A stretch of DNA of 43,047 nucleotides, taken from positions 1 to 43,047 of the forward strand of contig JANPGO010000060.1 of the NCBI GenBank assembly GCA_031423995.1, read 5' to 3'. The DNA is from Candidatus Altimarinota bacterium (GTDB lineage: Bacteria > Patescibacteriota > Gracilibacteria > BD1-5 > UBA2023). The notes under the pieces were generated by a model. That model made no database searches. It was not told the origin of the DNA and saw nothing but the letters and a program-made list of their open reading frames with translations. Positions 89-39,932 of this stretch are shown one piece after another; position 1 is the first letter of the stretch; every line of letters starts with the position of its first letter. A program made the translations under genes and the position numbers.

Positions 89-2146
89 ATGAACGCACCA
101 AAATCTATCAGAAATTTCTGTATCATTGCTCATATCGATCACGGGAAATCCACCCTCGCCGATCGCCTCATGGAGATCACAGGAACGCTCGAAAAGCGGG
201 AGATCCAGTCTCAGACGCTCGATCAGATGGATCTCGAACGAGAACGAGGAATCACGATCAAGCTCACCCCAGTCCGTATGGAATGGAAGTGAATCGAACT
301 CAATCTCATCGACACCCCGGGGCACGTCGATTTCCAATATGAAGTCTCTCGATCCCTCGCATCAGTTGAGTGAGCGATCCTCGTCGTCGATGCGACACAA
401 GGTATTGAGGCCCAGACCCTCTCGAATGTCTACCTCGCGATGGAGAATGATCTCACGATCATCCCAGTATTGAATAAGATCGACCTCCCCTCAGCCGATG
501 TCGAACGCGTGAGTGAAGAGGTGATGAATCTCCTCGGATGCAAGCGGGAAGATATCATTCCCGTATCAGCAAAAACAGGGATGAATGTCGAAACGATCCT
601 CGATGAAGTGATCCGACTCATTCCTGAACCGAAAAAACTCGATAATCAGTCGAACTTTGTACCAGTAAGCCCCCCTGAGAAGGGGGGGAGTCCGACTATT
701 TCTGTGGAGGACGGGGGGGTTGGCTTCTGAACGTCAGAGCAAACCCCTCCTCACCTCCCCTTATCAGGGGAGGATTGAGACAAAAAAACAGTGAAGTGAC
801 TCATCTTCGATTCTCAATACGATCCCTACAAATGAGTCGTCGTCTATCTCAAACTCTTCTCTGGACAGATAAAAAAATGAGACAAGCTCGAATTCATCAA
901 TACTGGCGCTCGAATCGAAGCCCTCGAAGTCGGATGTTTTCGTCCGAAATATTCCCCAACCAATGTCCTCTATGAAGGGGAAATTGGGTATGTCGTGACA
1001 GGATTGAAGTCTATCGTCGAGGCTCGTGTTGGTGATACAATATTTGCTGGGAATCCTGAAGCCAAGTATGCCATCAAGGGATTCAAGAAGATCACCCCCT
1101 ATATCTATGCAGGGATATTTCCTGTCGAGACCGATGAATACCCGAAGATGAAGGATGCCATGGAAAAACTCATGCTCAATGACTCCTCCCTCGTTGCAGA
1201 ACATGAAGCCTCTCCAGCACTCGGATATGGATTTCGCTGTGGATTCCTCGGACTGCTCCATCTCGATATCGTGAAGGAACGTCTCTGGCGAGAGCACGAT
1301 ATGGATGTCATCATCACGAGTCCTCAGGTTACCTACAAGGTACTCGTAAATGGGAACAAAGTAGCAGAATACCCTCGTGCAGCAGGGGAACTCGTGCACC
1401 TCATCCCTAACCCTTCTCCTAAAGGAGAAGGGAATGAGAAGCTGACATACCTCCCCCTCTCTGAAGGAGAGGGGGTTGGGGGGTGAGGTATATGTACGTA
1501 TCTCTCGATATCGAATCCGGAAGATCTCCCGAAACCTGGAACCTATATCCATATCGAAGAACCGATTGCCAAGGTCGAGATGATCACCCCGAATGAATAC
1601 ATCGGAAATCTCATGAACCTCGCTCAAGAGCGACGATGAGTATTCAAAAATCAGACCTACCTCGATGCGAATCGTGTCATCCTCCACTATGAGATCCCGA
1701 TGAGTGAACTCGTGGGCGATTATTATGATGACCTGAAGAGTCTCTCCAGTGGATATGCGAGCCTCCACTATGAGCCGATCCGTTTCCAGGAGGATGATAT
1801 CGTGAAGATGGATATCCGTGTGGCAGGCGATATTGTGGATGCCTTCTCCATGATGGCACATCGAGCACGGACTCGCTACCTCGGTGGGCGAATATGTGAG
1901 AAATTGAAGGAGAATATCCCGAAAGCACAGTTCGCGATCGCGATCCAGGCTGTAGTGGGCAATGATGTCGTCGCTCGTGAAGATATATCTGCTCTGCGCA
2001 AGGATGTGACTGCGAAGCTCTATGGAGGGGATATCACGCGCAAACGCAAACTCCTCGAGAAACAGAAAGAAGGAAAGAAGAAGATGAAACAATTCGGACG
2101 AGTCTCGATCCCAAGTGAGACGTTCGTAAATATACTGAAGAAGTAG
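89..2146 (+). CDS. lepA: Elongation factor 4 (LepA), 685 aa with two repeat-derived insertions
   Basis: [72 protein letters not shown]; fragments 89, 440, 995 and 1700 share one frame joined by TGA=Gly. Confidence 0.98.
670..773. repeat. Palindromic MITE-like element (family B), in frame in lepA
   Basis: CCCCTGAGAAGGGGGGG(672-688) is the near-perfect inverse of CCTCCCCTTATCAGGGG(754-770); each end is a hairpin; internal hairpin 713-750. Confidence 0.85.
1398..1489. repeat. Palindromic MITE-like element (family C), in frame in lepA
   Basis: ACCTCATCCCTAACCCTTCTCC...GGAGAGGGGGTTGGGGGGTGAGGT inverted ends; hairpins 1411-1432 and 1453-1475. Confidence 0.88.
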
Positions 2147-2150
2147 CTCC

Positions 2151-2498
2151 ATGCTCTCTACCTATAAAAAATCGCATCTCGAGAAGATTATCGCTCTCTA
2201 TATCGCTGAAAATCCGAAAATAGTGACTTTTTGTTTTGGGAAAAAGAGACCTATATTTCTCTCGAAATATTTGGAAGTCAATAGAGATCGTACAGATGGC
2301 ACGAGAAGGCTCCGATTTTTCGACGCTGCTATACGGTATCTGAAGAATGCTCAGCCTAAAGATGTATCCTCATATAGTTCCACGGAGTTCGAGATTATCT
2401 GAATTACGAGATCTGGAGAAAAATTCGCCATGCATATCCGAGAAGAATCGATCCAAAAGGACAAAAAACTCTTCCTCATATCTACTTTCGAAAAATAA
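2151..2498 (+). CDS. Small basic hypothetical protein (115 aa), possibly a RelE/BECR-like nuclease toxin
   Basis: ORF continues through TGA at 2400 to TAA 2496-2498; C-terminal beta-rich pattern FEIIGITRSGEKFAMHIREE...KLFLISTF; fold is inference only. Confidence 0.6.
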
Positions 2499-2634
2499 AA
2501 AAAACGAGAGACTATCTCGCATATAGCGGATTCTCCTCTCGTTCACTTCCTATTATATACCTCCGACTACACTGAAGCAGTACTTATTGCACGGAGACTC
2601 CAAACAGAGAAATGGTTCATGACGAACTTATGAG
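2497..2634 (-). ncRNA. Candidate ~135-nt sRNA convergent on the 2151-2498 ORF
   Basis: Minus-strand TTGCAT(2665-2660)-16 nt-TATACT(2643-2638); stems GACTC/GAGTC and CTCCG/CGGAG; terminator AACGAGAG/CTCTCGTT followed by a U run. Confidence 0.45.
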
Positions 2635-2682
2635 TCCAGTATATATCATACTATGAGAAATGCAAATTTTTTAGCAAAAAGA

Positions 2683-2726
2683 TCTCGATTCCTTCAGAAA
2701 CATTCGTGAATATACTGAAGAAGTAA
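2683..2726 (+). repeat. Duplicate of the lepA 3' end (att-like direct repeat of 2103-2146)
   Basis: Encodes [13 protein letters not shown] exactly as lepA does, with only synonymous differences. Confidence 0.9.
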
Positions 2727-2746
2727 CTATCTATAATAGAACAACT

Positions 2747-3992: not shown

Positions 3993-4142
3993 AGTAAGTA
4001 AGGTAATATGATAAAATCATGTATATGATACAATAATATTAGATAATTTGCAAGTTAATTTCATTTTTTATCGTACAATATATTTCTCTTTTTCTGTTGC
4101 AGGAAATATGAAATCAGATATAGTCTATGACCAGAAAATAGT

Positions 4143-5003: not shown

Positions 5004-5012
5004 GGAAGGAAC

Positions 5013-8074: not shown

Positions 8075-8169
8075 CCACACTCATGAATCTCGCTCGAAAC
8101 TCACACTTTCTCCGATGACAAAGGCTCTCCGCTTTTGTCATTTTTTGAAATAATTGATTCTCTCGGGAA

Positions 8170-8212
8170 GAGATTTCTCGACTTCAGCTATCGCCTTCGC
8201 TCGAAATGACAG
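8170..8212. repeat. Family A repeat, right-end half
   Basis: AGATTTCTCG...TTCGCTCGAAATGACAG matches 15216-15265; its 3' end is the inverse of TGTCATTTCGAGCGAA at 29376. Confidence 0.75.
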
Positions 8213-10222: not shown

Positions 10223-11737
10223 ATGCACGCACTCAATATCGCCTTCGATGGCAAGAGCTCATCTGAACTCAAGGAATTCATCTCAAAAAACAGAGAATTA
10301 TTCTCATCATGAGGGATCCATATCAAGGTCAATGACCTCCTCTCAGAGATCGGGATCGAGTGACTGAAGTTGCTCGCTTGAGAAATCCGGGATGAAACCT
10401 GAATCGATATCATCTGGATGATCGATGGGAAATGGTACGATATCCCGAATACCGTTGCGAACTATGCGAAGAGACTCGATGGACTCGATGTCGCATACTA
10501 CACCGTCCATGCGAGTGGATGAAGAGAGATGATCCAGGCAGCGAAAAAAGCAGCACCAAATACCAAGCTCCTCGCCATCACGATCCTCACCTCGATGCAG
10601 GATGATGAAGTAGTAGATATATATGATGCCAATCGTGCAGATTCTATCCTCCGCCTCGCGAAGTCAGCACTTGCAGCTGGTGCAGACGGGCTTGTCTGTT
10701 CGCCTGCAGATGCTCCGATGCTCAGGGAAGTATTCGGTTATGATTTTCTCCTCGTCACTCCGAATATTCAACGTGAATGAATAGAAAGAAAAGATGATCA
10801 GAATCAAGCTCTCACGAATACTCCACGCGGCGCGATCGAGAATGGTGCCTCAGATATTGTCGTTGGACGACCGATCCTCACGGCAGAGAATCCTGGAGAA
10901 GTCATACGAGAGACATTGGAACAAATGGATGCTGCTCAAGCCCCAATGAGAAGGGGGGAAGTCTGCCATAGCGGACAGGGGGGTTCTGTTTCTAGTCCAT
11001 TCGCCTTCGAAAAACTCCTCCACACTGGAGACTGGGAATCAGTCCTGAAATACATCGGTGCTATCTATATACGACCTATGTGAGGGAAATATGTCCGCTA
11101 TACAAGTGGTCTCATTGCCGATGCTTATACCAATATGGGCGTTCCAGAGAGAGACTATCGTGTACTGCATCGAGTCTGACATGATATCGCAGGACAACTC
11201 CATCAGGCGCACATATCCCCTGACTGAGTCATCGGTGCCCAGATGGGATCTGTCCGTCTCTCACTGTCACTTGCAGAGGCACTCAGTATCCCGGAAAGTC
11301 TCTATACAGAGAAGGATGGTGATAGCATGCTCCTGAAGCGACATGAACTCGGGGATGATGGGCTCAAGGGAAGGAAGATCATCCTCTCAGAAGATGTCAT
11401 CACGAAGGGTTCGACGATAGCGAAAATGATCGAAATCGTAAAAAATGGTGGTGGGGAAGTCGTCGCTGTTACCTGTATCGTGAATCGAAGTGGGAAGGAT
11501 AATTTCGACGGAATACCACTCTTCCACTGCTACACACCAGCACCATTCCAGATGTGGTGGGATGAGAAAACACTCGAAAAAACCCGAGCCAATGAACAGG
11601 CAACAGGGAAATCACCAGAAGAGATCGAAGCTATCATCACAGCACTCCAGTCGAAGTATCCGAGACTCCCATCCGATGCAGAGATATCTGAGAAGCCAAA
11701 AAATGAATGGAATGAACTCGTAAGAAGTATGAGATAA
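10223..11737 (+). CDS. pyrF-pyrE: Fused orotidine-5'-phosphate decarboxylase / orotate phosphoribosyltransferase (504 aa)
   Basis: DGKWYDIPNTV, TVHASGG, LLAITILTS, IVVGRPI in the N-terminal half; IILSEDVITKGSTI PRPP-binding loop in the C-terminal half; no TAA/TAG between them. Confidence 0.92.
10941..10985. repeat. Family B half-element in the PyrF-PyrE linker
   Basis: CCCCAATGAGAAGGGGGG-GTCTGC/GCGGAC hairpin-GGGGGGTT, same layout as 670-721 and 39449-39484. Confidence 0.7.
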
Positions 11738-12946: not shown

Positions 12947-13822
12947 ATGCTCTATCTCCATCCACATTTTTCCCACATCCAGTCGAAGTATCCTGATGCG
13001 GAAATCGTCCGATTCGAGCAATTCTCTGATGGATGGCCTCGAATTTTTCTCGATGATAAAGAGAGGATTCGAAATGAGGAAATTACCTATATCGGTGATT
13101 TTCGGTATGTCGATGATTTCTTCGGACAACTCGCTTTCCTCGATGGACTCATGCGATACAGTCCTCGTTCTCTCCATATTCATGTGCCATTTTTTCCTGC
13201 GGCATCGATGGAGCGAGATACTCCATCAGGGGAACTCTCGATTGCCAATGTCTTCGCACGGGCACTCTGACTCATCGGAGAGAGGAAATCCGGACAGGTG
13301 TTTATCCACCTGTACGATATTCACGATGAACGAGAGATTTTCTATTTTCCACCGTCACTCCAGATCGTTCACCATACGACCACTGACAACTTCAAACAAC
13401 AAGTGCTCAGAGGAGCGAAGAAACCCATCATCCTCTTTCCTGATGCAGGAGCAAAGAAGGCTTTTTCACGATTCTTTATTGATTATGAAGTAGTCACTTG
13501 TGCAAAGGTACGTACCTGACCGACGACACTTGAGATGTACTTCGAATGAGGGAATCTCGAGGGTCGTGAAGTATTTATCATCGATGATCATATACGCAGC
13601 GGATGAACCCTCATTGAAGCGGCGAAATACGCTCGTGAGAAATGAGCTATTTCCGTCTCTGCATTTGCCCCCCATGCGGTCTTTGCTGAGTGAATGAAGC
13701 AAACTTTTCTCGATGCATTCGATAGTTTCTACACGACGGATACTATTCCACTCAATAGAGAACGATTCCAATGAATCACAAAAGCGCATGTCCTTGATTT
13801 TGCATCAGAACTCTCTCTCTAG
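12947..13822 (+). CDS. prs: Ribose-phosphate pyrophosphokinase, divergent
   Basis: EQFSDG, PFFPAASMER, YDIH, LFPDAGAKK, VFIIDDHIRSGGTL, HAVF, TTDTIP. Confidence 0.85.
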
Positions 13823-13824
13823 TT

Positions 13825-15687
13825 ATGACCTTCCTCCAGAAAGCAAAACGATTTTTCGAGCCACTCAAGGAAAGTAGACTTTTAGTTCTCCTTTCGGTTT
13901 TGAAATTTTCAACGTGGGCACTGTATGGACTTTTCTCTGTCTATATGATTAGAGAGTCCGTGAGACTTTTTTCCCTTTCTGATCTCCATTGACTCACTAT
14001 TCTCCTCTATGAATTTATCACATTCTCGATAGGGTATCTCTGTATCACATGGATATCTCGGAAAACGGATTGGCCATATCTCTACTATGCTATTGTAAAA
14101 TGGATCTATCAACAATACCTCCAAAAACTCTTTCTTATCGATGGGAATTATATAGAACGGATGGGGACAGGGAAGCTCATTGCTATCATCACTTCATGAG
14201 AAAAAGCATGGGTCGAATGACTCACAAATTTTATCAAAGAAGGAACTCGGATGATTATATTGACGAGTTTTATTTTCTATATATTTCTCCAAGTTCAGAT
14301 TCTCTACGGAGTAATATTTCTCATTGTTCTCATTGTTCTGCATATTGTTGTCGTGATTGCGGACCAATACGCTCACAGGTACCGTCGAATGCGAACAGAG
14401 AAAAAGAATGAATTCACTCGACAACTCGTCCGGATTATTATGTCTCGCAATGAGATCATACAGTGATCGAGAGCGAATGAAGAACTCACGAAAAATGCAT
14501 CACTCGTAGATGAGATCTGAATGACAAATATTGGAATCAATAATGCACTATTCTTTGTCTTCAACTCAGTCAGAGTCCTGACGATCAGCTTCAGAATTAT
14601 CCTCTTTCTCCTCATCATATTCACGGGTATTCGTACTTCGATGAATCCTGCTGATCTTGCTGGTATCCTTGCACTCTTTGTTGTATTTGAGAACTTTCTT
14701 CTGGATTCTGTGGAGTTCTACAAGAACTTCTCGAAAGAATTCTCTGATATTGAGAAAATATGGGAAATCATCGACACCGCTCCAGTCATGCGATGATACT
14801 CCACCTGATCCCCCTTCACTCCTGAGAACAAGAATATCGAGATAGAGCAAGTCACCTATGGCTACACTGAGTCTAAAGTCTTCTCTGACTTTTCTCTCAC
14901 CATCGAGAAAGGGAAGAAGACAGCACTCGTCTGAGTCTCAGGAGGAGGAAAGACTACACTGATCAAGCTTATTGCTGGATACCTCCATCCAGAATCTGGA
15001 AGTATCTCAGTCCTCGGGAATCCACTGGATTCTACAGCCCTGAAAACCTACTATCCTCATATTGGTTATCTCACACAAGATCCGAGCGTCTTCGATGGAA
15101 CAATCAGAGAGAACCTCATAAGTGCAGTTTCGAGTGTACCAGTCATGTCGACAGAGTCGTCTGTGCCTGTGACGACGACGAGACATCTTGCTCAGAAATG
15201 ACGAGAAAAAAAGCAAGATTTCTCCCTTCCCCTGAAACAAGTTCAGGGTTCGCTCGAAATGACAGATACACAGGGCCTCGAACAAAAACTGACACAAGCA
15301 CTTAAACTTGCCCACTGTGACTTCGTCTTCGAACTCGAGAAGGGTCTCGATACTGAGATAGGAGAACGAGGTGTCCGATTGAGCTGATGACAGAAACAAC
15401 GTCTTGCCATTGCGAAGATATTTCTCAAGGATCCAGAAATAATACTCCTGGATGAACCTACTTCAGCCCTTGACTCCTTCAGTGAAGAGAAGATTACAGA
15501 AGCACTGGGTAATCTCTTCGAGTGACGAACCGTCATCATCGTGGCTCATAGACTGCAGACCGTGAAGAAGGCAGATGATATCATCGTCATCGAGTGAGGA
15601 TCGGTCGTGGAACGATGAACACACACAACCCTCGTAGAACAGGGAGGGATTTATGCGAGGATGCTCGAGTTACAGAGTGGATTTTAG
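13825..15687 (+). CDS. ABC exporter, fused permease and ATPase (620 aa)
   Basis: N-terminal TM domain; [17 protein letters not shown] (both Gly are TGA), [16 protein letters not shown]. Confidence 0.93.
15142..15263. repeat. Family A empty element (MITE-like), in frame in the ABC ATPase domain
   Basis: GTCATGTCGA...TCGAAATGAC outer IR; GAGACATCTTGC/GCAAGATTTCTC inner IR; hairpins 15156-15176 and 15230-15248. Confidence 0.85.
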
Positions 15688-16603: not shown

Positions 16604-17671
16604 TTGCGCTCTTCTAACAACTACACGACATCATTATTCTGTGTTCTCGCAGATCCTCGAGAAACTCGAAGAGTCGACACTTACTTGTCGGCTCTTTTTC
16701 CTGAGAAATCACGCAGCTACATCCAGAAGATGATCGAGGAGGGGAATATCACGGCGAATGGAGAACATTTCACGAAGAATAAGAAGATCTACCGTGGAGA
16801 TCTGATCGAGATGCGATGGAAAGTAGAAGCGATGCATCTCGAAGCAGAAGACCTTCCGATCGATATCGTCTATGAGAATGACGATTTCGCGATTATCAAT
16901 AAAGATGCTGGTATGAATACCCATCCAACACCAGGTGAAGATGGAAGAAAGGGAACTCTCGTGAATGCGCTTCTCTACCATTTTAAAAAACTTCCTCATC
17001 CCCCAGCCCCTTCTCCTTCAGAGAAGGAGGGCGACTACTACTATTATCCAATATCTTCTGAATGAGAAAGTATAGATAATGAGAAAACCCTCTCCTTTAG
17101 GAGAGGGCAAGGGTGAGGTAGTATTATCAATTGAGTTGAACGACCAGGTATCGTTCATCGATTGGATAAAGACACAAGCTGACTCATCATCATCGCGAAA
17201 AATGATCGTTCGATGCATGCACTCCAACTCAAGATCGCCAAGCGCACGATTGAAAAGACCTATCTTGCTCTGGTCACCGGAAGAGTGAAAGATCAGGAGG
17301 GGTATATCGAATCTTTTATCGGGCGTGATCCCTATGATCGAAAAAAAATGACTGTAGTCAATCCTGTCAATCCAAAAATCGCTAAAACGAAATTTATCAA
17401 TAGATGATATTTTGCCTCAAAATACACACTTCTCGAAGTTGATCTCCTCACTGGACGAACTCACCAGATCCGAGTCCACCTTGCCTCTATTGGATTTCCC
17501 ATTCTCGGTGATAAGATCTATGGAAATGAGAAGATGAACAAAGAGGCGCAAGAAGAATACGAACTGACTCGTCAATGGCTCCATGCATGGAAGCTCCGGT
17601 TCATGCTCTTCGGTGAAGATTTCCTATTCGAATGACCGCTCAAAGACGATCTCAAGAAAGTCATCGAATAG
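16604..17671 (+). CDS. rluD: RluA/RluD-family pseudouridine synthase
   Basis: S4 domain (RVDTYL...SRSYIQKMI), [39 protein letters not shown]; TTG start approximate. Confidence 0.93.
16994..17118. repeat. Family C element, in frame in rluD
   Basis: CCTCATCCCCCAGCCCCTTCTCC...CCCTCTCCTTTAGGAGAGGGCAAGGGTGAGG; same ends as 1398-1489. Confidence 0.85.
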
Positions 17672-19161: not shown

Positions 19162-19815
19162 TTGTTCACAGATTCTGATCTCAGTCACATCCTCAGTATA
19201 CTCGTAGAGCTCTATGGATGAAAGAAAATAGAGCTCAATTACGAAACGCCATTTCAGCTTCTCTGTGCTGTTATCCTCTCGGCACAAACAACTGATAAGC
19301 AAGTTAATCGAATTACACCACCATTTTTTGCACTGGTTCGGGAAGCATGAGATGTAGAAGATCTCTCTCTTGAAGCCATCGAGTCACATCTTCGATATGT
19401 GAATTTTTATCGAAATAAATCAAGATACATAAAGGAAACTGCTTCTCGTCTTGCCCGTGAATACAATGGATGCATTCCCAATGAACTCAAACTCTTGCAA
19501 ACTTTTCCAGGTATTGGCATCAAAACGGCCAAGGTAGTTCTCTCGGTCCTCTATGATATGCCGTATGTAGGTGTAGATACCCATATTCATCGTGTGATGA
19601 ATCGTCTTGGAATCGTCATGACAAAAACCCCAGAACAAACTGATAAAGCAATCGATGCGATCTTTTCTCAGGAACAGAAACGAGTACTTCATCATCCAAC
19701 AGTGCTTTTTTGACGGTATACCTGTACAGCGAGGAATCCAAAGTGTAGTACTTGCAAACTCAAAAAATGGTGTACATATTATCATGCACACCATAAGGAG
19801 AAGACTGAAGACTAG
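19162..19815 (+). CDS. nth: Endonuclease III
   Basis: PFQLLCAVILSAQTTD, PGIGIKTA, VDTHIHRV, CTARNPKCSTCKLKKWC [4Fe-4S] motif; TTG start. Confidence 0.95.
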
Positions 19816-22800
19816 AAGCTCAGTTGCCCGAGGAGAGCATCGAGCGAAGGATCTGAGGATAGATCTGTTGATCCGTTCAATTGATTTCTCGAAGTTGAGC
19901 TAGATGGTGCGGAATTCAGATCTCGATTTGTCATCTCTTCATACATTCTCTGATGGAATTTGAGAATTCTGAGAGCATACTCTTTCGTGAGAGTCAATCG
20001 TACATCTCCATTCGTCGAAACAAGTTGTATTTGAATAAGAGCGTTGTCTATTGCTCATACCGGATCATTTGAAGTTTCTGCTTCTCAGAGAACATGACGA
20101 ATAATGGCTCTCAGATACACAGCTGTATCATCTACGAGGGAAAGTCTTGGGAGCATAGTCTCAAGTGCCGATTGAGCAGAGGTTACTGTTTCGCTTGGAG
20201 TTATAGTGAGCTGATCTGGATGATTGATTTTGAGTCCTGATGCCGTGAGTTCACGATTCATAAGGAGAAGCTGGGAAGCGAGTCCTGTAGAATCATTTGC
20301 CATAGTGAAGACCGTACCATTAATTGTCTGATGCTGTTGTATTCCTGGTGTATTTGGTGCAGAAGTGAATGTATCACCTCCCGAAACTGCACTACTCGAT
20401 CCACCTCAACCACCGCCATTTCATACAATCGGACCTTGAATGATCACTGCCTGTGTTGGATCAATGGTCCTAATAGTCACCATTCCAGTACTACTCGTAA
20501 GGAGACCATCTGAAACGGTATACGTAAATGAATCACTTCCAAAGTACCCAATCGTCGGAGTATAGATAAACGATCCTGAAGCATTAAATACGAGTATCCC
20601 GTGTGATGGACTTCCTATCTGTGCATAGCCAGTAATGACACTATCAACATCTGTTCAGAAAAGCATACCACTGAGGACATTTCCAGAATTTGATACTGTA
20701 TTGCCTGTCATATTGTATGCGACATTATTCGCAATTGGTGCATCATTCACTGGGAGGACAGTGAGTGTAACTGTCTTTGATGCTGAAGAGAGTGATCCAT
20801 CTGTTACATGGTAGGTGAATGAGAGTATTCCATTGTAGTTCAGTGCTGGAGTGAAATTCACTGTTCCAGAAGACTGAAGTGAGAGTGTTCCTGTAGCAAC
20901 TGAGGTATCAAGAACATATGTGATCGGATTGCCATCAGGATCACTGCCAGAAAGTGTGAAAACCTTCAGTGTATCTTCGTTGGTGGTAAATGAACCACTC
21001 AAAGCTACCGGTGCAGTATTGGTTGCATTTGCACTCATCGTGATATTCACAACAGCGGGATTACTATTCGCGATTCCGTCATTTGCTACATAGGAGAATG
21101 TATCACTACCGACATATCCGACATTTGGAGTATAGGTGAACACCCCTGAAGCAGTCATAGAAAGTATTCCATTTGACGGCAATGCTGCTGAAGTAAAGCT
21201 AAAGGTAACACTATCAATATCTGTCGCTGTTCCTGTGAATATAAGGTTGTGGGTATTGTCAGCAATAATATTTCCTGTGATGGTAAAGCTTCCAGATGCA
21301 GCAATTGGTGCATCATTGACTGGAAGAACATCAATCGTAACGGTCTGGATTGGAGAAGGGAGGAGTCCATCTGTTACATGATAGGTGAATGAGAGTGTTC
21401 CATTATAATTCAGAGCCGGAGAAAAATTCACGGTTCCAGAAGATTGGAGAGAGAGAATGCCTGAAGGTGTTGATGTATCAAGTACATAGGTCACTCCATT
21501 TCCATCTGGATCACTGCCTGAGAGTGTGAAGCTCACTAGAGTATCTTCGTTGGTGACGAAGGAACCGCTGGAAGCGAATGGTGCAGAATTGATACCAGAA
21601 ATCATGAAGTCTACTGTTCCAGTATTTGAAACTGCCTGTCCATCATCAATTCTGAAGGTAAATGAATCAGTTCCTGTGTATCCATAGGCTGGAGTATATG
21701 CATAGATCCCTGTACTCGTCATATTGAGGAGTCAGTGAACTGGAAGGGTTGATGCAGCATACGTGAGAATCATGCTATCGATATCTGAACCTGAGAGTGT
21801 TCCGGTGAAAGTATTTCCACTACTTGCATAGGAATTTCCAGCAATAGTATGGGAAGCATTGTAAGCAACTGGTGTATCATTGACTGGAGTGATCGTCAGA
21901 CTTATTGAGGCAGTATTTGAGTCATAGAGACCATCATTGACATGGAAACTAAAGGAATCAGATCCATTGTAGTTCGGATTTGGAGTGTAGATAAACCCTC
22001 AAGTTCCATTCAGAGAGACTGTTCCGCTTGTTGGAAGAGAGTTGAGAATATAGGTGAGTGTGGCACTCTCTGGATCAGCAGCAATAAATATTCCTGTCAA
22101 TGAAGTATCCTCACTGAGAGAAAGAGAAGCTCACGTCGCTACTGGTGGAGTGTTCGATGGAGCTACAGTCAGTGTGACCGTCGCGAGATTCGAAATGAGT
22201 GAAGTCTCATCGACGAGACGGTAAGAGAGTGAATCGCTACCAGAATATCCCGTGTTCGGTGTGTAGAGAAATCCTGAAGCTGTAGGAGAAATGCTTCCAT
22301 TGGTAGGATTCGAGAATCCAGTGAGTGTCAACTGCCCTGAGAGAGAATCGACATCATAATCATTATTCATGACCGGAACAAAGAACGATGTGTCTTGAAC
22401 AAGTGAGAATGCATCATTGACTACAACTGGCGCATCTGGGACAGAAGTGATATTGAAATCGATATTGGCTCATGAAGAATAGGCAGAACCATCGAACACT
22501 CGATAGATGAACGTATCAGTTCAATTATAGTTCAGTGTCGGCGTATAGCTAAAGGATGATCCTATAAGTGAAACGGTTCCATGAAGCGGAAGGGTACTCA
22601 CAGTGAATGATAGGGTATCAGGATTGATGTCAGTTCATGAGAGTGTTCCCATAAAGTTAGTATCCTCATTTGTCACGTAGACAGCTCCAGAGTCTGTCGG
22701 AGGGGTATTCGGTACACTGACGGTGATATTGACGGTTCCAGTGTTCGAAAGAGCTCCACTCTGATCCTGAAGAGAATAAGTAAAACTATCAGGTCAGATA

Positions 22801-25643
22801 TATCCATTATTGACAGCATATTGGAACTGATTTCCATTAATAATAACAGAGCCATGAATTGGTTGTGTAAAGCCAGAAAGAGACAAAGTCTGAGCTACAT
22901 ATGGACTATCTGGATCTGTATCATTGGCAAGGACATCGAAGTTGGTAAGTGCCCCTGTGACGGTCATAGAATCATTGACTGCAACAGGTGCATCATTCAC
23001 ACAGTTGACGACGATAGAAGCACTGACAGGATCTGCATAGTTACTATACTGATCATATGCTCGGTACATGAATGTATCTACACCACAGAAATTTGGATTC
23101 GGTATATAGGATGCCGTTCCAGAGATATCGATCGAGAGAGAGCCATTCGGTGGATTGACAAACTGATCAAAAAAGACCGTATCACCAGGATTGTAGTCGA
23201 CTCCAGAAAGTGTTCCAATAATGAGAGGATCGTCCTCGTTTCCAGAGAAGCTCACTGGAAATACCACTGGTGGAGTATTCGTCGTCGTCACATCTACTTG
23301 GTTGATTCGTGAGCCGATCTCGTTCTGCGTGTAGAGATAGGTTGTTGACGTTGCGCCAGTAGGTGGCTCGAAATATATATCTCAGATATTTGAAGCAGGA
23401 ATATTCACGGATCCTGTAACAGTCGTATATGCAAGATTTGTCTGAGTTGAGCCGGTAGCAATCCATGACACATGTGCAAGTGTACCGCTCGGAATAGAAC
23501 CAGAGTCAATTGTCATAGAAACGGTTGGAACCGTCACAAGGTTGGGACTGTTATTCCAGAGAGCAAGACTTGCTGAATGAGCAGGCAGAGAGAGAGAAAG
23601 TGTTGGCCATCCAGTCGTTGCATTCGAAGTATCTACATACTGTGCACAAGGCACTCCTGAGGGACAAGACTGAGAGATTGATGTGCTTCCAGTATTCACG
23701 AGAACGAGCACTTCATTCACATTTGTATTCTTTTGGACGATATTTTTGCGACGGATACTCATCTCATCGATTTCTAGAGGAATATTTTGATTCGAGATTT
23801 CGAGTGCAAACTGTGCATCAGTCGCTGTCGTATTCGCATAAATATAGTATAAAAATGAACGACCAGTACTCATAGAATATGTTTCTGCATTACTATCAGA
23901 GTAGAGTGTAGTTTGGTATCATGCCCTATGGAATGATCATTTTATATTCAGACTTCCTGTCACTGACGATTTCAGGTATCCTGATACTTCATAAACTTGT
24001 CCACCCGTAATAGAAAGTACTGAATTGTTTGTTATATACATGTGACTCGGGGTGCTATCCTGAGGAGCAATCATCATAGATGATCAGCTGTATGATCAAC
24101 TTACTTTTTGTGTAAGAGTTGGAGCGAGTCATGTAGATGTACTGGGAGTCCATCCGGAAACATCAGTCTCAAAGCTCGGATTCGTGAGGAGATTCGCTGT
24201 CACATATGAACCTGTATTCGTATATGGCTTGTATCCGAAAGATTGGAACACATTTGCACTCGGATCAAATGAGGTAATACTTGATTTCGTCGCATATTCC
24301 ATACTTTCTCATCAGAATTTTATACTTCTGATATACGAAGTATCTGGCTTATAGAGTGTGACAAAATTATTCCCAATTGCAGTGATGAGTGAGGCAGTTC
24401 CTGTTCCTGGAGTTTCATCTCGCATCTCGATATATGGATATTCTACGTTGCGTTGGAAGAGAGTATTACTATTCATACTAACATTCGCAACAGTTCCTGG
24501 AGTATTCTGTATCACTAAGATTGAGTTTCTTGGAGCGTTGAGGATAGTATTTGAGTTGATAGCAGTATTTGATGAGTCAATGAGATGAATACCATTATTT
24601 CAAACAAGTGAAGGTATATACTTGATAATATTAGAACTGATATTTACTGAGTCGACTGATGAGAGCCATATGCCATCAGCGCTTGAGTACTCTATGTAAT
24701 TGTTTATGATAGTGGAATTGTAAATTGTTCCTGTATTGTAATTTTGAATCACTCAACAAAGATTGACTGTATTGCCAGCTATACAAGGGAATCAGCCATC
24801 TGGACTATAAAAAATATTATTTTGGATGGTTGTATTTGGACTCATAGCAATAGCAGAATAAAGTGCTCCTCCAAATTTATAAGGAAAAGTATTGCTCTGA
24901 ATAAGATTAATCCCGGTTCATGTCATAAAAATTCCGTAATAATTATATTGAATTATATTATTTTGGATGGTTGAATTACTATTATTGATATTTATTGCAT
25001 CATGAATACGATCATCGAAATTATTATTATCCACAATAACGCTCGTAGAGCTCGTAGAACGAATCCCCGAAATACTATGCGATGAGACTCAGCTAAAGCT
25101 ATTCCCCGAAATAGTAATAGTATCTGTAGAAATGATACGAAGTAAGTCAGTGAGTGTATTCCCACTAAAGCTAAATTGGCTGTTGGTTACATTGATATTA
25201 TTTGAATTATTGACTACTCCCGCACTTCATGAACTCGAGAGGAGTTTTAGGTTGTTAATATTGACGAAATTAGCACTAGAAATACTCATATTCTCAATCT
25301 GAGGTCTATTTGTTGTAGTACATCATGTTCCATAAGAATTATATGTGATAGGTGAACCAAAAATACCTGACTCGAATGAATCAAGCGTTCCTGTCCATGA
25401 TTCTCCACAGAGAAATGATACTGTATCTCCCTGAGAAAAAGTCTGACCATTTACAAATGCAACTGATCGCCAAGGAGTTGCTGGTGAGAGTCAATCATTG
25501 GTATCATTCCCAAGCGTTGCATCGACATAGTATTGCGTCGATGCTGCAAACGTATACTGTATTGTTGGTGCGAGCGTATTTGAGAGAAATGCTGAGAATA
25601 CCAGAGAAGCGAGTATTCGGTAGAATATATTTGTATGTGTCAT
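19812..25643 (-). CDS. Giant secreted/surface protein (~1943 aa): beta-helix, CBM-like region, ~10 cadherin-like/tandem-95 Ig repeats
   Basis: Track fragments 19812-24515 share one frame; signal-like N-terminus, [23 protein letters not shown] opening, Asn-rich strands, ten N-x-[AP]-P-[VIF]-type repeats with YTPxxxYxGxDSF. Confidence 0.88.
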
Positions 25644-29337: not shown

Positions 29338-29402
29338 GTATTGGATGGTAATAGTTTCCGTCGTCCTGAGTGAAATGTCATTTCGAGCGAATCCATGGGT
29401 TT

Positions 29403-29771
29403 CTGTCATTCCTGCGTATGCAGGAATCCAGGGTATTATTGGGTTATTTCGTTGAATAAATCATTCCATTCAGGATTATTTGCTTCTATTTTATTGAGTT
29501 TATATTCTCGTTTCCATTTTTTCATCCTCTTTTCAGTAGTAATTGCATCATATATATTCTGAAAAGATTCATACCATACAAGTATATTCACGTTATATCT
29601 TTTTGTAAATCATTCATTCAATTTCTCTTTATGTTCTAGTATTCTCCGAATCAAGTTATCTGTCACTCCGATATAGAGTGTTCCATTTCTCTGACTTGCG
29701 AGTATGTACACATAGTATGTATTCATAGGAATGCGTTAATGACTGGATTCCTGCATACGCAGGAATGACAG
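29403..29771. mobile_element. Minimal GIY-YIG element bounded by perfect 29-bp inverted repeats
   Basis: CTGTCATTCCTGCGTATGCAGGAATCCAG(29403-29431) and its exact reverse complement (29743-29771); each copy is itself a hairpin. Confidence 0.8.
29436..29726 (-). CDS. Small GIY-YIG nuclease (96 aa)
   Basis: [30 protein letters not shown]...GFTKRY...[17 protein letters not shown]...NPEWNDL; missing from the ORF track because of one TGA. Confidence 0.93.
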
Positions 29772-35703: not shown

Positions 35704-35762
35704 GAAAGAGAAACTTTTGTAATGTAATATTGATAACATATAACTTTTATTTCTTATATACT

Positions 35763-37304
35763 ATGTCCCTCCTCACAGATATTATCACTCACTATACTTT
35801 TTCTGGAAAATCATTTCCCATCGGTCTCGGTATGGAGAAATGATCTGTCCTTCCAGGAGCGATTGTCTCACTTCCACTCTCCACGATGAATCGTCATGGA
35901 CTCATCGCTGGTGCGACCGGAACCGGGAAGACGAAGACACTCCAGAAGATGATCGAATCCCTCTCGGTCAATGGTGTCCCAACAGTCGTGATGGATATAA
36001 AGGGAGATGTATCTGGGTTGGCACTTCCATGAGAAATGAATGAAAAAATCAGTGAGAGACTCTCGATCCTCGGGAAATCAGACTGGAAATGAACAGGATT
36101 CCCGACGGAATTCTATACCCTCACTGGCGCCCAGTGAGTGAAACTCAGGGCAACGGTCAGTGAATTTTGAGCCGTTCTCTTTGCTCGGCTTCTCGAGCTC
36201 AATAATACGCAGGAAAGTGTGATTGCGCTGATATTCCAGTATTGTGATGATACTGCTCTCCTCCTCATTGATCTGGAAGATGTAAAAAAGGTCCTACAAT
36301 ATCTCTCAAATGAAGGAAAGGAGGAAATCGAAAAAGAATATGGCATGATCTCAACGTCGACCGTTGGAACGATCATGCGAAAGGTGATCGAACTCGAGTC
36401 ACAAGGGGCAGCAATATTTTTCGGTGAACCGTCATTCGAAGTTGTTGACCTCATGCGAACCGATGAGAGTGGAAATGGTTATGTGAATATCATCCGTCTC
36501 ATGGACATGATGACTCGACCGAAGCTCTTTTCGACCTTCATCCTCTCGCTCCTCTCTGAAATCTATAATACTCTCCCTGAAGTTGGGGATATCGAGAAAC
36601 CGAAGCTCATCCTCTTCATCGATGAAGCACACCTGATCTTCGAGAATGCTTCATCCTCGCTTCTTAGAGAAATCGAGATGATCATCAAGCTGATTCGATC
36701 GAAGTGAGTGGGGATATATTTCTGTACACAGAATCCGATCGATATCCCAGCAAATATCCTCGCTCAGCTCGGATTGAAGGTACAGCATGCACTCCGTGCC
36801 TTCACCGCGAAGGACCACGAAACCATCAAACGTGCGAGTGAGAACTTCCCAACCACCGAGTATTATGATGTCGCCCATGATCTCACGACACTCGGGATCG
36901 GAGAAGCCTTCATCACGGCTCTCGATGAAAAGGGTATCCCAACCCCCCTCGTTCACACGATGATCGCACCCCCTGAGTCTCGTATGGGAATCCTCACGGA
37001 GAGTGAACTCATGGGTCTCACGAGTATCTCCCCGCTCATCTCGAAATATAATATCATCCTCGACCGCGAAAGTGCCCGAGAAATTCTCGAAAGGAGAGTA
37101 TCAGAAAAAATAGCACAAAATACTCCATCGATGATGGAAGGTATGATGAGTGGCACAACGGGGAAAATCGCAAAAAATGTCGGAGGCACCCTTGCTGCCG
37201 AGCTCGGTCGTACACTCGGAAGGTCTCTCGGTGGACGCACGGGTGGAACGATCGGTGCACAGATCGCGAGAGGACTCCTCGGATCTATTTTTGGGGGAAG
37301 ATAG
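35763..37304 (+). CDS. HerA-like / DUF853 (YjgR-type) ATPase
   Basis: [62 protein letters not shown]. Confidence 0.93.
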
Positions 37305-37347
37305 TGGGTGACATATCTCGACATTACTGTTTTAGGTTGCAGAAAAA

Positions 37348-37648
37348 TGTCATTTCGAACAAAATTTTAGGGTAAATTTTCGTGAGAAATCTTCCTTCTA
37401 ATGTTTCATAAATATGTCTGAAGAGATGTACATCTACATTCTTACGAACCACTCTCACAATACCTTCTATACTGTTGTCACGAACAATCTCAAAAGAAGA
37501 ATCCTTGAGCATCGACAAAAACTACCGTCGAGAAAAGAAAATTTATCTCATAGAATCGATAAATCTATTTTGGAAAGATCTTTCTGAAAATTGGTACAAT
37601 TAAAAGGAAGATTTTTCCTTCTCACTTCGCATAGAAGTCGAAATAACT
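37348..37648 (+). pseudogene. Decayed family A GIY-YIG element (nuclease remnant 37414-37603)
   Basis: MYIYILTNHSHNTFYTVVTNNLKRRILEHRQK, then an internal deletion/frameshift to RREKKIYLIESINLFWKDL; flanked by TGTCATTTCGA..GAAATCTTCCTT and AAGGAAGATTT..TCGAAATAAC. Confidence 0.85.
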
Positions 37649-37710
37649 TTCTTATAAGTTATTTATAGAATACCGTATTTTTATCATTTGGTTTCTAATC
37701 ATAACTTCTT

Positions 37711-38481
37711 ATGTTTTCCCTCGCACTTGGCGGATGAGCCGCTCGTGGACTCGCTCATATCGGTGTGATTCGTCGACTCGAAGAGATGGACTTCAAACCA
37801 GCAGCTATTTCTGGAACCAGTATGGGTGCCATTATCGGTGCACTCTATGCCCTCGGGAAGGATTCTCATGAGATAGAGTCGATCGTCGCGAGTGTCCCTT
37901 GGGTGAAGCTCCTCGATCCGGATATGCAGAAGTGACTTCTGAAGGGTGACAAAGTCGAGAAATACCTCGATGATATTTTCGAAGGGAAGAGTTTCGCTGA
38001 CCTCCAGATCCCACTCACGGTCACCTCGACCAATATTGATACTGGGGAGGGGATTATTTTTCGATCATGACAACTCTCTGCCGCTGTGAGGGCATCGATC
38101 GGACTCCCCTGAGTCTTCATCCCGAAAACCTACCTCGGACAAAACTGTGTGGATGGAGGACTCGCGAACAATCTCCCGATCGAATATCTCCCAGAAGGGA
38201 AGGTGATCGCGGTATCCGCCCTCCGTGACCTCACCAGGAAGATACGGTATGAGAAAGAGTTTTTCGGAGTCAATTGGTCGAAGACCATCTTCTGAGTGAC
38301 CTATTCCATCATCCAGAAGACGATCGATATCATGCTCACACAGAATGAATCCCGTTCTGTTAGCTCGAGAAAGGATGTCACCTATATTCGCCCAGAATTC
38401 GACTGACTCGACTACTATGAGTTCGATAAATATCAGAAATTCATCGAGGCAGGCTATGTGGCAGCGAGACTATGACTCTAA
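37711..38481 (+). CDS. Patatin-like phospholipase
   Basis: LALGGGAARGLAHIG, GTSMG, DGG..NNLP. Confidence 0.95.
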
Positions 38482-38547
38482 TATCGAGACGAATCTTGAT
38501 TTTCTCGTGAAAATGAATAGTCTGCACGCAGTCTTCACTTCTTTCTC

Positions 38548-38787
38548 ATGAATCTCATTCTCCTCTGAGTCTATATCGTGATCATTATCGTGATCTTCGC
38601 ATTTATCGGGATTGTACTGATGGATATAGGGAATTTCAAGCAGTATTCGAAATATCTCCCGACCGTCCTCAGGATCTACCTCGCGACGATTATTATCATC
38701 GCGATATTCTGAGCGTACAAAATCTCGACGCACTATACCCCTCCGAAGAAGCAGAGAAATATTCAGACCGAACAGGTGAATTTCTAA
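38548..38787 (+). CDS. Small two-TM membrane protein (79 aa)
   Basis: Native codon style; two hydrophobic segments; upstream TTGATT-16 nt-TAGTCT. Confidence 0.7.
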
Positions 38788-38807
38788 TTTCTAAACACTA
38801 TAATCTC

Positions 38808-39932
38808 ATGCAAGTCGGAATCGTCGGTCTCCCCAATGTTGGTAAATCCACACTTTTTAATGCGCTCACCAAATCCTATGCTGCCGAGGCAGCGAACTTC
38901 CCATTCTGTACGATAGAACCAAATGTCGGAATCGTGAATGTGAACGACGAACGTCTTGAGCAAATCCGTGTGGTCGTGAATGGGGCGAAGATCATCCCAG
39001 CGACTGTCGAATTCGTCGATATCGCAGGGCTCGTCGAGTGAGCAAGTAAGGGTGAATGACTCGGAAATAAATTCCTCTCCCATATCCGTAGTGTCGATGC
39101 TATCCTTCAGGTCGTCCGAGCCTTCGATGACTCCACTGTCCACCATGTAAGTGGCTCAGTCGATCCCAAGCGTGATATCGAGATTATCAATCTCGAACTG
39201 ATATTCGCTGACCTCGAGACTCTCGATAAGCGCATCGGTGACAATCAGAAAAAGGTACGAGCCGGGGATAAGGAAGCAAAATCTCGGGAAGATATCTACA
39301 ATAGACTCAAGGCACACCTCGAATCAGGAGCAATCGCCTCCCTCATGGAAATGACCGACGATGAGAAACTCGCCGTCGCCGACCTCCATCTCCTCACCAA
39401 TAAGCCATTCATCTATGCCGTGAATGTGACAGAAGATTGGTTCTCGAGCCCCCCTGAAAAGGGGGGTAGCGAAGCTGGGGGGTTCAATGACACTGAACTC
39501 AGAGCAATTACTGGCATTTCAGACTCCAAAATCCCGGTCCTTCCCGTAAGTGCGAAGATCGAGATGGATATGCTCGAATTCTCCGAAGAGGATAAGAAGA
39601 TGTTCCTCGCAGATATGGGGATCGACTTCAATCCGATGGATACGATTATCCGGACTTGCTATGATCTCCTCGGACTCCAGTACTACTTCACCGCAGGGGA
39701 GATCGAGGTGCGAGCCTGGACGATCCATCAGGGAGATACAGCTCCTGTCGCTGCAGGAGTGATCCATACGGACTTCCAGAAGAAATTCATCAAGGCAGAA
39801 ACCGTGAACTGGAAGAATCTCGTCGAATTCGGAGGATGGTCAGGAGCACGTGAGAAGGGAAAAGTACGCATGGAAGGGAAGGAATATATCGTCGCGGATG
39901 GGGATGTGATGTTGTTTAAATTTGGGGGGTAA
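38808..39932 (+). CDS. ychF: Obg-family ATPase YchF
   Basis: [48 protein letters not shown] (two TGA), [20 protein letters not shown]. Confidence 0.98.
39449..39484. repeat. Family B half-element, in frame in ychF
   Basis: CCCCCCTGAAAAGGGGGG-AGCGAAGCT-GGGGGGTT; encodes SPPEKGGS, identical to the peptide in the LepA insertion. Confidence 0.82.

Follow-up and report, generated by a model that had tools for sequence, protein, structure and literature searches.

Small palindromic DNA elements occur in several settings, both between and within genes. REP and REPIN units, imperfect G+C-rich hairpins some 35 nt long, are extragenic. Yeast mitochondrial GC clusters are comparable inverted repeats in coding sequence, while mitochondrial 'byp' elements are skipped by the ribosome. 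GIY-YIG enzymes are found among the homing endonucleases of group I introns and inteins. To our knowledge, no nuclease-bearing partner has been described for the Rickettsia palindromic elements (RPEs). RPEs comprise several palindromic families of about 100-150 nt that lie in frame in unrelated housekeeping genes of a bacterium with a small genome (PMC10969869). In mitochondrial coding palindromes, inverted repeats lie inside protein-coding sequence and both arms are translated (PMC6649704). A group I intron homing endonuclease is among the members of the Vsr/DUF559 group (PMC3424549; PMC3239194).

The window analyzed here, a whole 43,047-nt stretch of DNA from a Candidatus Altimarinota bacterium, holds six palindromic insertions in five genes, all on the forward strand. 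Two lie in lepA (89..2146; 685 aa under code 25; identified by translation, Pfam, and orthologue alignment), whose product is about 85 aa longer than that of most relatives. The first is a family B inverted doublet between the G domain and domain II (667..773; in-frame TGA at 728) and the second a family C inverted doublet (1398..1489; in-frame TGA at 1484). The linker of a pyrF-pyrE fusion (10223..11737; Pfam OMPdecase and Pribosyltran) contains a single family B module (10939..10985) translated as QAPMRRGEVCHSGQGGS. In an ABC transporter ATPase/permease gene (13771..15687; Pfam ABC_tran), a family A element with GTCAT...ATGAC ends (15142..15263; in-frame TGA at 15199) lies between the Q-loop and the signature motif, and the ABC_tran match extends over 194 residues versus 137 profile positions. 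A family C doublet (16994..17119; in-frame TGA at 17063 and 17114) is located in rluD (16604..17671; Pfam S4 and PseudoU_synth_2) directly ahead of the HRLD catalytic motif. Finally, ychF (38808..39932; Pfam and orthologue alignment), with the likely start MQVGIVG, carries a single family B module (39446..39484); a longer ORF from 38472 is probably not real. The initial annotation had placed in-frame palindromes at these six sites, and all six are present with the host frame kept, in the hosts it had named from sequence, which Pfam identifies as LepA, a PyrF-PyrE fusion, an ABC ATPase, RluD, and YchF. Its five in-frame TGA codons are genuine, as is the GGG-TGA-GGT right end of both family C copies in the window. 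In-frame placement thus stands, but none of the lengths it gave for four elements (104, 92, 122, and 125 nt) is divisible by three, and the element boundaries are therefore approximate.

The elements are built of inverted hairpin modules, single or as doublets, with stem positions that co-vary (CCCTCTCC/GGAGAGGG versus CCTTCTCC/GGAGAAGG). Three families had been proposed; several palindrome families do exist, but their number exceeds three. Further copies, implied by that proposal, were found elsewhere in the genome that carries the window (G000): family B at 12 loci and family C as 28-29 modules at 18 loci, all of the latter within long ORFs. Pfam domains were detected in 14 of 16 host ORFs of G000, the module often lying inside the domain span. 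Across G000, G003, G004, and G038, every one of the 71 C modules falls within an ORF of at least 150 aa.

Are these segments ancestral parts of their host proteins? Orthologue alignment of each host shows every segment to be lineage-specific, missing or replaced in relatives. For LepA, 13 of 20 fetched loci gave usable rows, seven being dropped where another ORF was picked. Among these 13, the family B doublet is common to G000, G003, and G001 only, and the C site is occupied solely in G000 (99 nt, versus 21 nt in G003, the closest relative), with G003, G001, and G004 among those without the element. The LepA C doublet is also present in an independent DNA contig, another contig has 70 nt replacing 1345-1492, and a DNA contig of a separate study covers both LepA elements. 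The RluD C insert appears in one of 15 alignment rows, and G038, from another genus, has a single C module at the same RluD site. At the YchF site, family B is present in G000 and G002, different inserts are present in G003 and G001, and 10 of 14 rows are empty. The three same-genus genomes with the pyrF-pyrE gene have three different inserts in the linker, the elements of G003 and G001 differing. The ABC ATPase A-type insert is common to G000, G002, and G008, while other inserts occupy the site in four of 11 rows and none in another four.

The same turnover is seen in the 27 family C elements of G003, G004, and G038, of which 25 have flanks that map to G000. A C element occurs at the same place in G000 at eight of these sites; the G000 site is clearly shorter at six, ambiguous at one, and holds other sequence, often another hairpin family, at 10. 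The elements therefore come and go among close relatives, and the same tolerant sites are used again and again. By eye, no target-site duplication is visible at 10 full C copies or seven occupied/unoccupied pairs, and no clean empty site was seen among the alleles compared, which differ by replacement rather than simple insertion. Location between conserved motifs, absence at orthologous sites, and multiple copies support the RPE-like reading offered by the initial annotation.

Do the palindromes have a gene-bearing partner? Within the order, we examined 20 strong matches to PF04480 (DUF559, Vsr-like): four in G000, eight in same-genus genomes, and eight in G057, G023, G019, and G040. All 20 are flanked by inverted hairpin modules, scored on both sides or on the single visible side where the contig ends. 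Seventeen lie in frame within ORFs of 247-918 aa and three are free-standing. By Pfam, DUF559 is nested in ApbE, MgsA/RarA, MiaB-type radical SAM, and RecG DEAD domains (PF04480 match E = 1e-20 to 1e-33), and the domain matches PDB 3hrl (E = 3.8e-14). Between G000 and G003, dN/dS of the nested nuclease is 0.115 and 0.137, with host flanks at 0.037-0.084. The nuclease ORF is thus under purifying selection, which argues for its translation. The majority of nested nuclease ORFs have no separate start codon, and they may therefore represent domesticated domains and not mobile genes that are still active.

These nuclease elements share their ends with the short insertions. Each end of the LepA B doublet has its counterpart at an end of the DUF559 element on contig C98 (33 nt at 94%; 16 nt at 100%), and a DUF559 element on C111 shares family B ends as well. 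Family C ends are shared with DUF559 elements in G003, G019, G023, G040, and G057. In RecG, a C-flanked DUF559 sits just ahead of the APTEILA motif in G003 and G019, where G000 has about 80 nt of other sequence. The nuclease is found at the same site of RarA in four species and of MiaB in three, a pattern that could equally reflect old vertical inheritance or homing. One side of a branch holds five C-flanked nucleases, drawn from five genomes and from four host genes; this grouping was recovered in 100% of 200 bootstrap trees and just two of 500 label shuffles scored as low, with modest support for the clade itself (65/73). Across different host genes, the clade of a nuclease goes with the family of its end modules. 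DUF559 gave no match in G038 (five C modules; 86% complete) or in G008, and given the G038 modules, short copies, if still mobile, would move without a resident nuclease. By eye, the spacers of short C doublets contain no clear nuclease ORF remnant. The link of palindromes to nuclease genes goes beyond the initial annotation's reading.

Family A leads to a second nuclease. The element at the ABC ATPase site belongs to a large, mostly extragenic GTCAT...ATGAC superfamily, in which 32 of 113 repeat regions lie inside a predicted CDS (by a crude gene caller). One such element in the window, at 8137..8210, lies between predicted genes and is not an in-frame insertion. On the reverse strand, a GIY-YIG nuclease gene of 96 aa (29436-29726; PF01541, E = 3e-15) is bracketed by a perfect inverted pair of 29-nt GTCAT-type hairpin modules (29403-29431 and 29743-29771), and another two modules lie beside it (29360-29400). 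The terminal motif of the ABC ATPase element recurs next to this gene, at 29376-29391. Modules included, the element spans 29360..29771 and may be a full-length representative of the superfamily to which family A belongs. GTCAT-type modules flank seven of eight small GIY-YIG ORFs, plus one fragment.

Does reading UGA as glycine aid these insertions, as had been proposed? A permissive effect is evident; an excess of TGA-containing frames is not. Of the 36 family C modules that lie within genes and are read from the ...TGAGGT end, 19 have TGA in frame, against 19.2 expected from random choice among frames free of TAA and TAG. Such a module has on average 2.39 open frames under code 25 versus 1.11 under code 11, and the standard code would truncate the host protein at 10 of the 18 family C loci of G000. 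All three frames are in use, barring those with TAA or TAG (15:10:10 for sense-read C ends, counted manually from the module listing). The glycine code is neither sufficient nor necessary for in-frame elements. It is not sufficient, since in two further genomes of the order that also recode TGA these modules lie mostly outside long ORFs (10 of 35 and 17 of 31 inside). It is not necessary, since in a phylum-wide sample, among matches without an internal TGA, 14 of 44 DUF559 matches lie in open frames of at least 269 aa. The one inspected from that sample, in G132, is nested between hairpin modules.

We propose that the six insertions are short, gene-less copies, either inverted doublets (MITE-like) or single ends, of mobile elements with inverted, G+C-rich hairpin modules at both ends. 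Full-length members would carry a small nuclease gene, with DUF559 (Vsr-like, PD-(D/E)xK) as the putative nuclease of families B, C, and at least two other module families, and GIY-YIG as that of the superfamily including family A. Long or short, the elements sit in frame in the loops and linkers of housekeeping proteins. The nuclease may move its element through cleavage and repair of the homing type or through cutting directed by the hairpins, and the short copies may be deletion derivatives, either mobilized in trans or relics. Translation of the pyrimidine-rich and purine-rich arms would yield flexible Pro/Ser/Gly/Glu-rich peptides that the host protein tolerates. Because TGA encodes glycine, the ...GGGTGAGGT end would no longer stop translation, roughly doubling the frames compatible with survival. 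That these are mobile palindromes inserted in frame and translated we hold with considerable confidence; the nuclease link taken by itself, like the whole composite, we consider probable.

Could the elements instead be plain Rickettsia-type palindromes or MITEs whose mobilizing enzyme is unknown or lost, with the nuclease genes as unrelated cargo or palindrome targets? Hairpin modules would then collect wherever they are tolerated, the surroundings of small selfish genes included. Sister species do have different hairpin families at the same hot spots, which indicates that modules gather at tolerant sites, and both the C modules of G038, where DUF559 gave no match, and the lack of visible target duplication or clean excision are in keeping with this account. 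It leaves unexplained, however, why all 20 DUF559 matches are flanked by modules, why nuclease clade tracks module family through four host genes, and why the two ends of the LepA B doublet match those, left and right, of a single DUF559 element; we judge it unlikely. Mobilization of REP doublets by a domesticated Y1 (IS200-like) transposase, as in REPIN-RAYT systems, is suggested by the REPIN-like form of the doublets (two inverted hairpin modules and a short spacer) and by one Y1_Tnp gene in G000. That lone gene has no B or C modules downstream, its upstream side being cut by the contig end. PF01797 has no match in G003 or G057, each with 30 modules, or in G038, and the at least 23 copies in G019 are of an ordinary multi-copy IS200-like gene. 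REPINs are, moreover, extragenic, whereas all 71 C modules of four genomes are intragenic, and a REPIN-RAYT origin is accordingly very improbable.

An equally improbable account holds that the segments never reach the mature protein, through intron-like removal from RNA, intein-like removal from protein, or ribosome skipping. Stable hairpins within a coding RNA might, in principle, guide its processing or cause ribosomes to hop. Yet all 71 intragenic modules preserve the host frame and are free of in-frame TAA and TAG, a constraint that would be needless if the segments were removed. The frame is likewise open throughout the nuclease-carrying inserts, and the nested nuclease evolves in the host frame at a dN/dS of 0.12-0.14. 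Pfam detects no Hint or intein domain in four nuclease-carrying hosts, where the inserts are DUF559 only, and the window holds no Rfam family. An RNA-library contig, possibly derived from DNA, spans 663-843 without a gap and so retains the LepA B element. Might the segments have arisen in place, as flexible linkers or low-complexity expansions selected by the host? Gly, Pro, Ser, and Glu abound in the inserted peptides, which lie in loops and are modeled as disordered: in an AlphaFold2 model of RluD, residues 129-179 have pLDDT <50 and the rest of the protein is mostly at 70-96. The same nucleotide modules are nonetheless found in either orientation and in each of the three frames, where they encode peptides that differ; their stem positions change together; and they are also present outside ORFs in G019 and G057. 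Frame and orientation data already contradict an origin in place.

What would mobile, hairpin-bounded elements with nuclease-bearing members mean? We tentatively suggest an undescribed selfish class: a DUF559 or GIY-YIG cassette bounded by hairpins, at conserved sites of essential genes, without intron or intein, wholly translated, and with gene-less MITE-like offspring. Such a cassette would survive by in-frame translation, nuclease included, its hairpin ends serving as flexible linkers. The class appears to be widespread in the candidate phyla radiation. If this is true, RPE-type 'coding palindromes' would gain a concrete origin and a mobilizing enzyme, and the cassette class would be favored where TGA is a sense codon. 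It suggests a little-known route by which selfish DNA inhabits essential genes.

How do these elements compare with known systems? Like MITEs, short gene-less copies share inverted ends with longer gene-bearing elements (PMC10969869), but the partner here is a small DUF559 or GIY-YIG nuclease rather than a DDE or Y1 transposase, no target-site duplication is seen, and both forms are predicted to be read through as protein. With REP and REPIN units they share single or inverted-doublet, G+C-rich imperfect hairpins of about 35 nt with co-varying stems; they differ from REPIN-RAYT in having no matching Y1 transposase and in being intragenic and, as predicted, translated. Mitochondrial coding palindromes belong to organellar genomes, and the abstract describing them reports no nuclease partner (PMC6649704). 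Homing endonucleases share the nuclease fold families, including the Vsr-like I-Bth0305I (PMC3239194; PMC3424549), as well as fixed, conserved sites in conserved genes (here RecG, RarA, and MiaB) with occupied and unoccupied alleles among relatives. Here, by contrast, no self-splicing intron or intein surrounds the nuclease; the element is predicted to remain in the mRNA and in frame, its hairpin ends being translated as linkers; and homing activity is putative. RPEs, too, add peptides between conserved protein parts and vary in presence among relatives (PMC10969869). The evidence supports calling the present elements RPE-like as a kind of element, not by membership of the RPE-1 to RPE-10 sequence families: they come from an unrelated lineage with a recoded genetic code, their building block is a hairpin module of about 35 nt, single or in inverted doublets, and their ends also bound putative full-length elements that carry a nuclease.

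The organism of the window is represented by an assembly of 1.44 Mb in 121 contigs with 42% G+C, of which the window is contig C60. Since conserved glycine positions of LepA hold TGA and all long genes of the window are open only when TGA is read as sense, NCBI table 25 (code 25, TGA read as Gly) applies. Five of these genes, assigned by Pfam to LepA, a PyrF-PyrE fusion, an ABC transporter ATPase, RluD and YchF, host palindromic segments belonging to three families of hairpin modules, A, B and C. All six segments claimed in the initial annotation were found: LepA at 670-773 (family B) and 1398-1489 (C), the PyrF-PyrE linker at 10941-10985 (B), the ABC ATPase at 15142-15263 (A), RluD at 16994-17118 (C) and YchF at 39449-39484 (B). 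The five TGA codons said to lie in frame within them (728, 1484, 15199, 17063 and 17114) all do so, and both window copies of family C have the right end described, GGG-TGA-GGT. Segments and frames therefore stand as first reported, although the element lengths given there are approximate only. Under code 25, long ORFs antisense to real genes are common throughout the window, for example that at 761-2152 on the minus strand, facing lepA.

Do orthologues of the five proteins share these segments? Alignment with sequences taken from up to 30 related genomes shows that presence of the insert differs among relatives at the LepA, RluD, YchF, PyrF-PyrE and ABC ATPase sites. Because long antisense ORFs are common in the window genome, automatic ORF choice went astray; for LepA, 13 of 20 loci were usable, and the seven at which an antisense or unrelated ORF had been picked were left out. 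The LepA family C segment is present in the window genome alone among the 13 usable rows. The MAFFT gap at this site is misplaced and the site was judged by eye: it measures 99 nt in the window genome versus 21 nt in the closest relative (G003), a net difference of 26 codons between flanks that are 94-99% identical. The LepA family B segment is common to three genomes of the genus only, and the RluD segment occurs in one of 15 rows. At the YchF site, family B is found in two genomes of the same genus and other inserts in two more, with 10 of 14 rows empty. Each of the three same-genus genomes possessing the PyrF-PyrE gene has its own, different element in the linker. In the ABC ATPase the site lies between the Q-loop and the signature motif; of 11 rows, four are empty there and four have other inserts, and the A-type insert is found in three genomes. 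In an AlphaFold2 model the RluD insert (residues 129-179) has pLDDT below 50 and no secondary structure, while the remaining enzyme lies mostly at 70-96. The phenomenon originally proposed, insertion in the manner of Rickettsia palindromic elements, is real.

Family C is built on a unit of about 35 nt, in which ACCTCAYCCC is followed by a short spacer and a hairpin such as CCCTCTCC-TAAA-GGAGAGGG; modules are single or form inverted doublets with a spacer of 10-60 nt. The stem covaries, CCCTCTCC/GGAGAGGG alternating with CCTTCTCC/GGAGAAGG. As two module subtypes differ in hairpin register, the covariance model used (R1) was built without base pairs and scores sequence only. Pattern search and sequence profile together yield 28-29 modules at 18 loci in the window genome. 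The family B unit, a CCCCCC-TGAnAA-GGGGGG hairpin followed by GGGGGGTT, likewise occurs singly or as inverted doublets, at 12 loci. Self-comparison of the genome revealed more hairpin families and placed family A within a large GTCAT...ATGAC superfamily. A tandem form of family C, not seen in the window genus, occurs in A+T-rich relatives; in one of them (G019), hairpins such as those at L137 (C1:1187942-1188236 of that genome) and L140 are followed by three to five tandem terminal units of GGGGTGAGGT plus about 12 nt.

Profile matches to family C are patchy, occurring in 18 of 61 related genomes. Other genomes of the window genus have 30 modules (G003), 8 (G004) or a single one (G001 and G002); two genomes of the order's second family have 32 and 30, and the profile search found none in any of 12 genomes of the third family. 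Among 150 further genomes sampled evenly from the phylum, a match was found in only two, single and weak in each.

Counted as coding versus intergenic, families C and B lie mostly in ORFs in the window genome (18 of 18 loci within long ORFs and 11 or 12 of 12 within well-scoring ORFs, respectively), whereas the GTCAT superfamily has only 32 of its 113 repeat regions in CDS as delimited by a rough gene caller of our own with 74% genome coverage. Modules were scored by the longest ORF spanning them, of at least 150 aa; all 71 family C modules of the window genome, G003, G004 and G038 pass, as do 92-97% of random windows from the same loci in genomes of this kind. Because ORF length discriminates so poorly there, a Pfam check of host ORFs was added. 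Of 16 distinct family C hosts in the window genome, 14 have Pfam domains, whose envelope often spans the module; they include a MurC-type ligase, ArgRS, LeuRS, LigA, a XerC/D-type recombinase, glutamate dehydrogenase, a DHH-family protein, a glycosyltransferase and radical SAM enzymes. In the A+T-rich, TGA-recoded genomes G019 and G057, 10 of 35 and 17 of 31 modules are within ORFs, versus 73% and 85% of random windows from the same loci.

The sites turn over. Flanks of 27 family C elements from G003, G004 and G038 were mapped onto the window genome, and 25 could be placed. Eight of these sites have a C element in the same place, the window genome is clearly shorter at six, and one is ambiguous; at the other 10 it carries different sequence of similar or greater length, often of another hairpin family. 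Between occupied and unoccupied alleles a short variable stretch is replaced, and inspection of family C sites by eye revealed neither clean insertion nor target duplication. Public reads agree with this picture of replacement and turnover. A DNA contig from an independent study covers both LepA elements, and the LepA C element is also present in a related strain; in a second contig of that run, window 1345-1492 is replaced by 70 nt, so that it differs by 78 nt just as G003 does. The entire LepA B element is covered by a metatranscriptome contig (663-843), a weak hint that it is retained in RNA. Small-share sequencing runs (X7 and others) gave module-sized matches only and are uninformative on habitat.

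What is the source of these palindromes? RecG of G003 holds two C modules 390 nt apart where the window genome has only about 80 nt, and the sequence between them is a DUF559 domain (PF04480, a Vsr-like nuclease). We examined every strong PF04480 match, 20 in all: four in the window genome, eight in four genomes of the same genus and eight in G057, G023, G019 and G040. Inverted hairpin modules of one family or another flank all 20; three are free-standing, and the other 17 are in-frame parts of ORFs of 247-918 aa. Pfam places the nested domain in ApbE, between the AAA and lid domains in MgsA/RarA, and inside the DEAD domain of RecG and the radical SAM domain of a MiaB-type enzyme. Occupied sites are conserved: four species have the element at one and the same RarA site and three have it in MiaB, and in RecG the position directly before the APTEILA motif is occupied in G003 and also in G019, a genome of another taxonomic family. 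Between the window genome and G003, dN/dS of the nested nuclease is 0.115 (103 codons) and 0.137 (106 codons), with host flanks at 0.037-0.084; the nuclease is therefore under constraint at the protein level in the host frame. Its match to the solved Neisseria DUF559 protein 3hrl has E = 3.8e-14. For RarA together with the nested nuclease, AlphaFold2 modelling from four sequences gave a mean pLDDT of 42.9, too poor to inform.

Nucleases and module families are associated. Five C-flanked nucleases, representing five genomes and four host genes, form one group (support 65/73) that is kept in all of 200 bootstrap trees; of 500 label shuffles, 2 gave a value as low. As to family B, one end of the LepA doublet matches the left end, and the other the right end, of the DUF559 element that contig C98 carries in ApbE. 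No nuclease ORF remnants were found by eye in doublet spacers. A REPIN-RAYT system, in which a Y1 transposase (PF01797) mobilises REP doublets, is not supported by the distribution of that enzyme: it is multi-copy in G019, represented in the window genome by one IS200-like gene at a contig edge, and absent from G003, G057 and G038. We favour an interpretation in which hairpin-bounded nuclease elements live in frame within genes, with TGA=Gly as a permissive factor, and the short palindromes are single ends or gene-less copies of them; we infer that the nucleases mobilise the elements, that short copies arise from long ones and that the inserts are translated.

How far does the genetic code matter? 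Orientation and frame were recorded for 71 intragenic family C modules. ACCTCA-sense ends use the three frames 15:10:10 (manual count), which argues against selection for one particular peptide. Among modules read from the ...TGAGGT side, 19 of 36 have an in-frame TGA, versus 19.2 expected from random choice among TAA/TAG-free frames; TGA-containing frames are thus as common as chance predicts. These modules have 2.39 of three frames open under code 25 versus 1.11 under the standard code (code 11), which would truncate the host protein at 10 of the 18 loci of the window genome. TGA reassignment therefore clearly widens what is tolerated. It is not sufficient, because modules are mostly intergenic in the recoded G019 and G057. 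In the phylum sample, DUF559 occurs in 26 of 151 genomes, the window genome counted. None of the 44 matches outside the window genome has a TGA inside, on which ground these relatives are taken as standard-code, and 14 lie in open frames of at least 269 aa. Six matches were inspected: G+C-rich hairpin modules are present on both sides in five and upstream only in one. In one of the six, G132, the domain is nested in frame within a 651-aa protein. The nuclease-hairpin architecture is therefore widespread in the phylum and recoding is not needed for it. The in-frame share is higher in the recoded order, 17 of 20 (about 11 of 14 distinct sites) versus 14 of 44 in the phylum sample, the hits being non-independent. 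Thus, the aid first ascribed to UGA=Gly holds as a permissive widening and neither as a sufficient nor as a necessary condition.

The GTCAT superfamily accompanies another nuclease. In the window, perfect 29-nt inverted modules of the GTCAT type stand on both sides of a GIY-YIG gene of 96 aa (29436-29726, minus strand). Across the genome, seven of eight small GIY-YIG ORFs have such flanks, as does one fragment; the remaining small ORF and UvrC are without them. Upstream of the gene at 37711, in a region of approximately 37320-37640, GTCAT-type modules enclose a truncated GIY-YIG remnant (37426-37539), apparently a degraded copy of the element at 29360-29771. The two copies of the final 14 lepA codons, stop included, at 2103-2148 and 2683-2728, are 580 nt apart, differ synonymously and enclose a 115-aa ORF for which Pfam gave no credible match. 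The lepA 3' end looks as if it holds an inserted element with a replacement gene end. On contig C88 (about 900-1400), a small GIY-YIG gene and GTCAT-type modules lie between two copies of a uvr-like gene 3' end (...AAEIRDELLS.RKK, stop), a duplication of the same kind as at lepA.

Other repeats were noted. A 1943-aa ORF at 19812-25643 (minus strand), with internal repeats of about 570 nt in four copies at 20524-22265, is probably a large repetitive surface protein. A 50-nt repeat (AAAAAAATCCCCTTCACG...GGCTTGAAAAG) stands upstream of small genes at 40434-40483, 41107-41156 and 41468-41517; it may be a shared promoter module, since a TATAAT-like box follows the first copy. Long tandem arrays of the 7-nt units AGCAGTT, AAGAACC, TCTAACT and AGAATTT occur genome-wide, often at contig ends (for example C37:1-129, C10:1-132, C81:4481-4601 and C83:22799-22936), and in the window genome a short heptamer run fills the RecG site that holds the nuclease element in G003. 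Two sets of near-identical 140-nt sequences, in 18 and 16 copies, all lie less than 200 nt from contig ends (for example C1:4561-4700, C20:5443-5581, C5:2-142 and C34:1-140 of the window genome) and probably represent the termini of multi-copy insertion sequences at which the assembly breaks.

If the reading of short palindromes as parts of nuclease elements is true, many DUF559 "domain fusions" in databases would be nested selfish elements, and the persistence of mobile DNA within essential genes of very small genomes would be explained. It would also provide a measurable case of stop-codon reassignment enlarging insertion space, from 1.1 to 2.4 open frames per module end, and a warning for annotation, as proteins of these genomes would contain inserted, probably disordered segments and whole nuclease domains. 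In the open full-text literature, subscription journals and supplements aside, we found no such description for Gracilibacteria or the candidate phyla radiation, and no link of DUF559 or GIY-YIG to palindromic repeats. A survey of PD-(D/E)xK enzymes places Vsr, DUF559 and a group I intron homing endonuclease in one group (PMC3424549; see also PMC3239194). Coding palindromes, for their part, are regarded in a review as a peculiarity of Rickettsia, of unknown source (PMC10969869). They are now seen in an unrelated, uncultivated and recoded lineage, where nuclease-bearing full-length elements with the same ends are a candidate engine for them.
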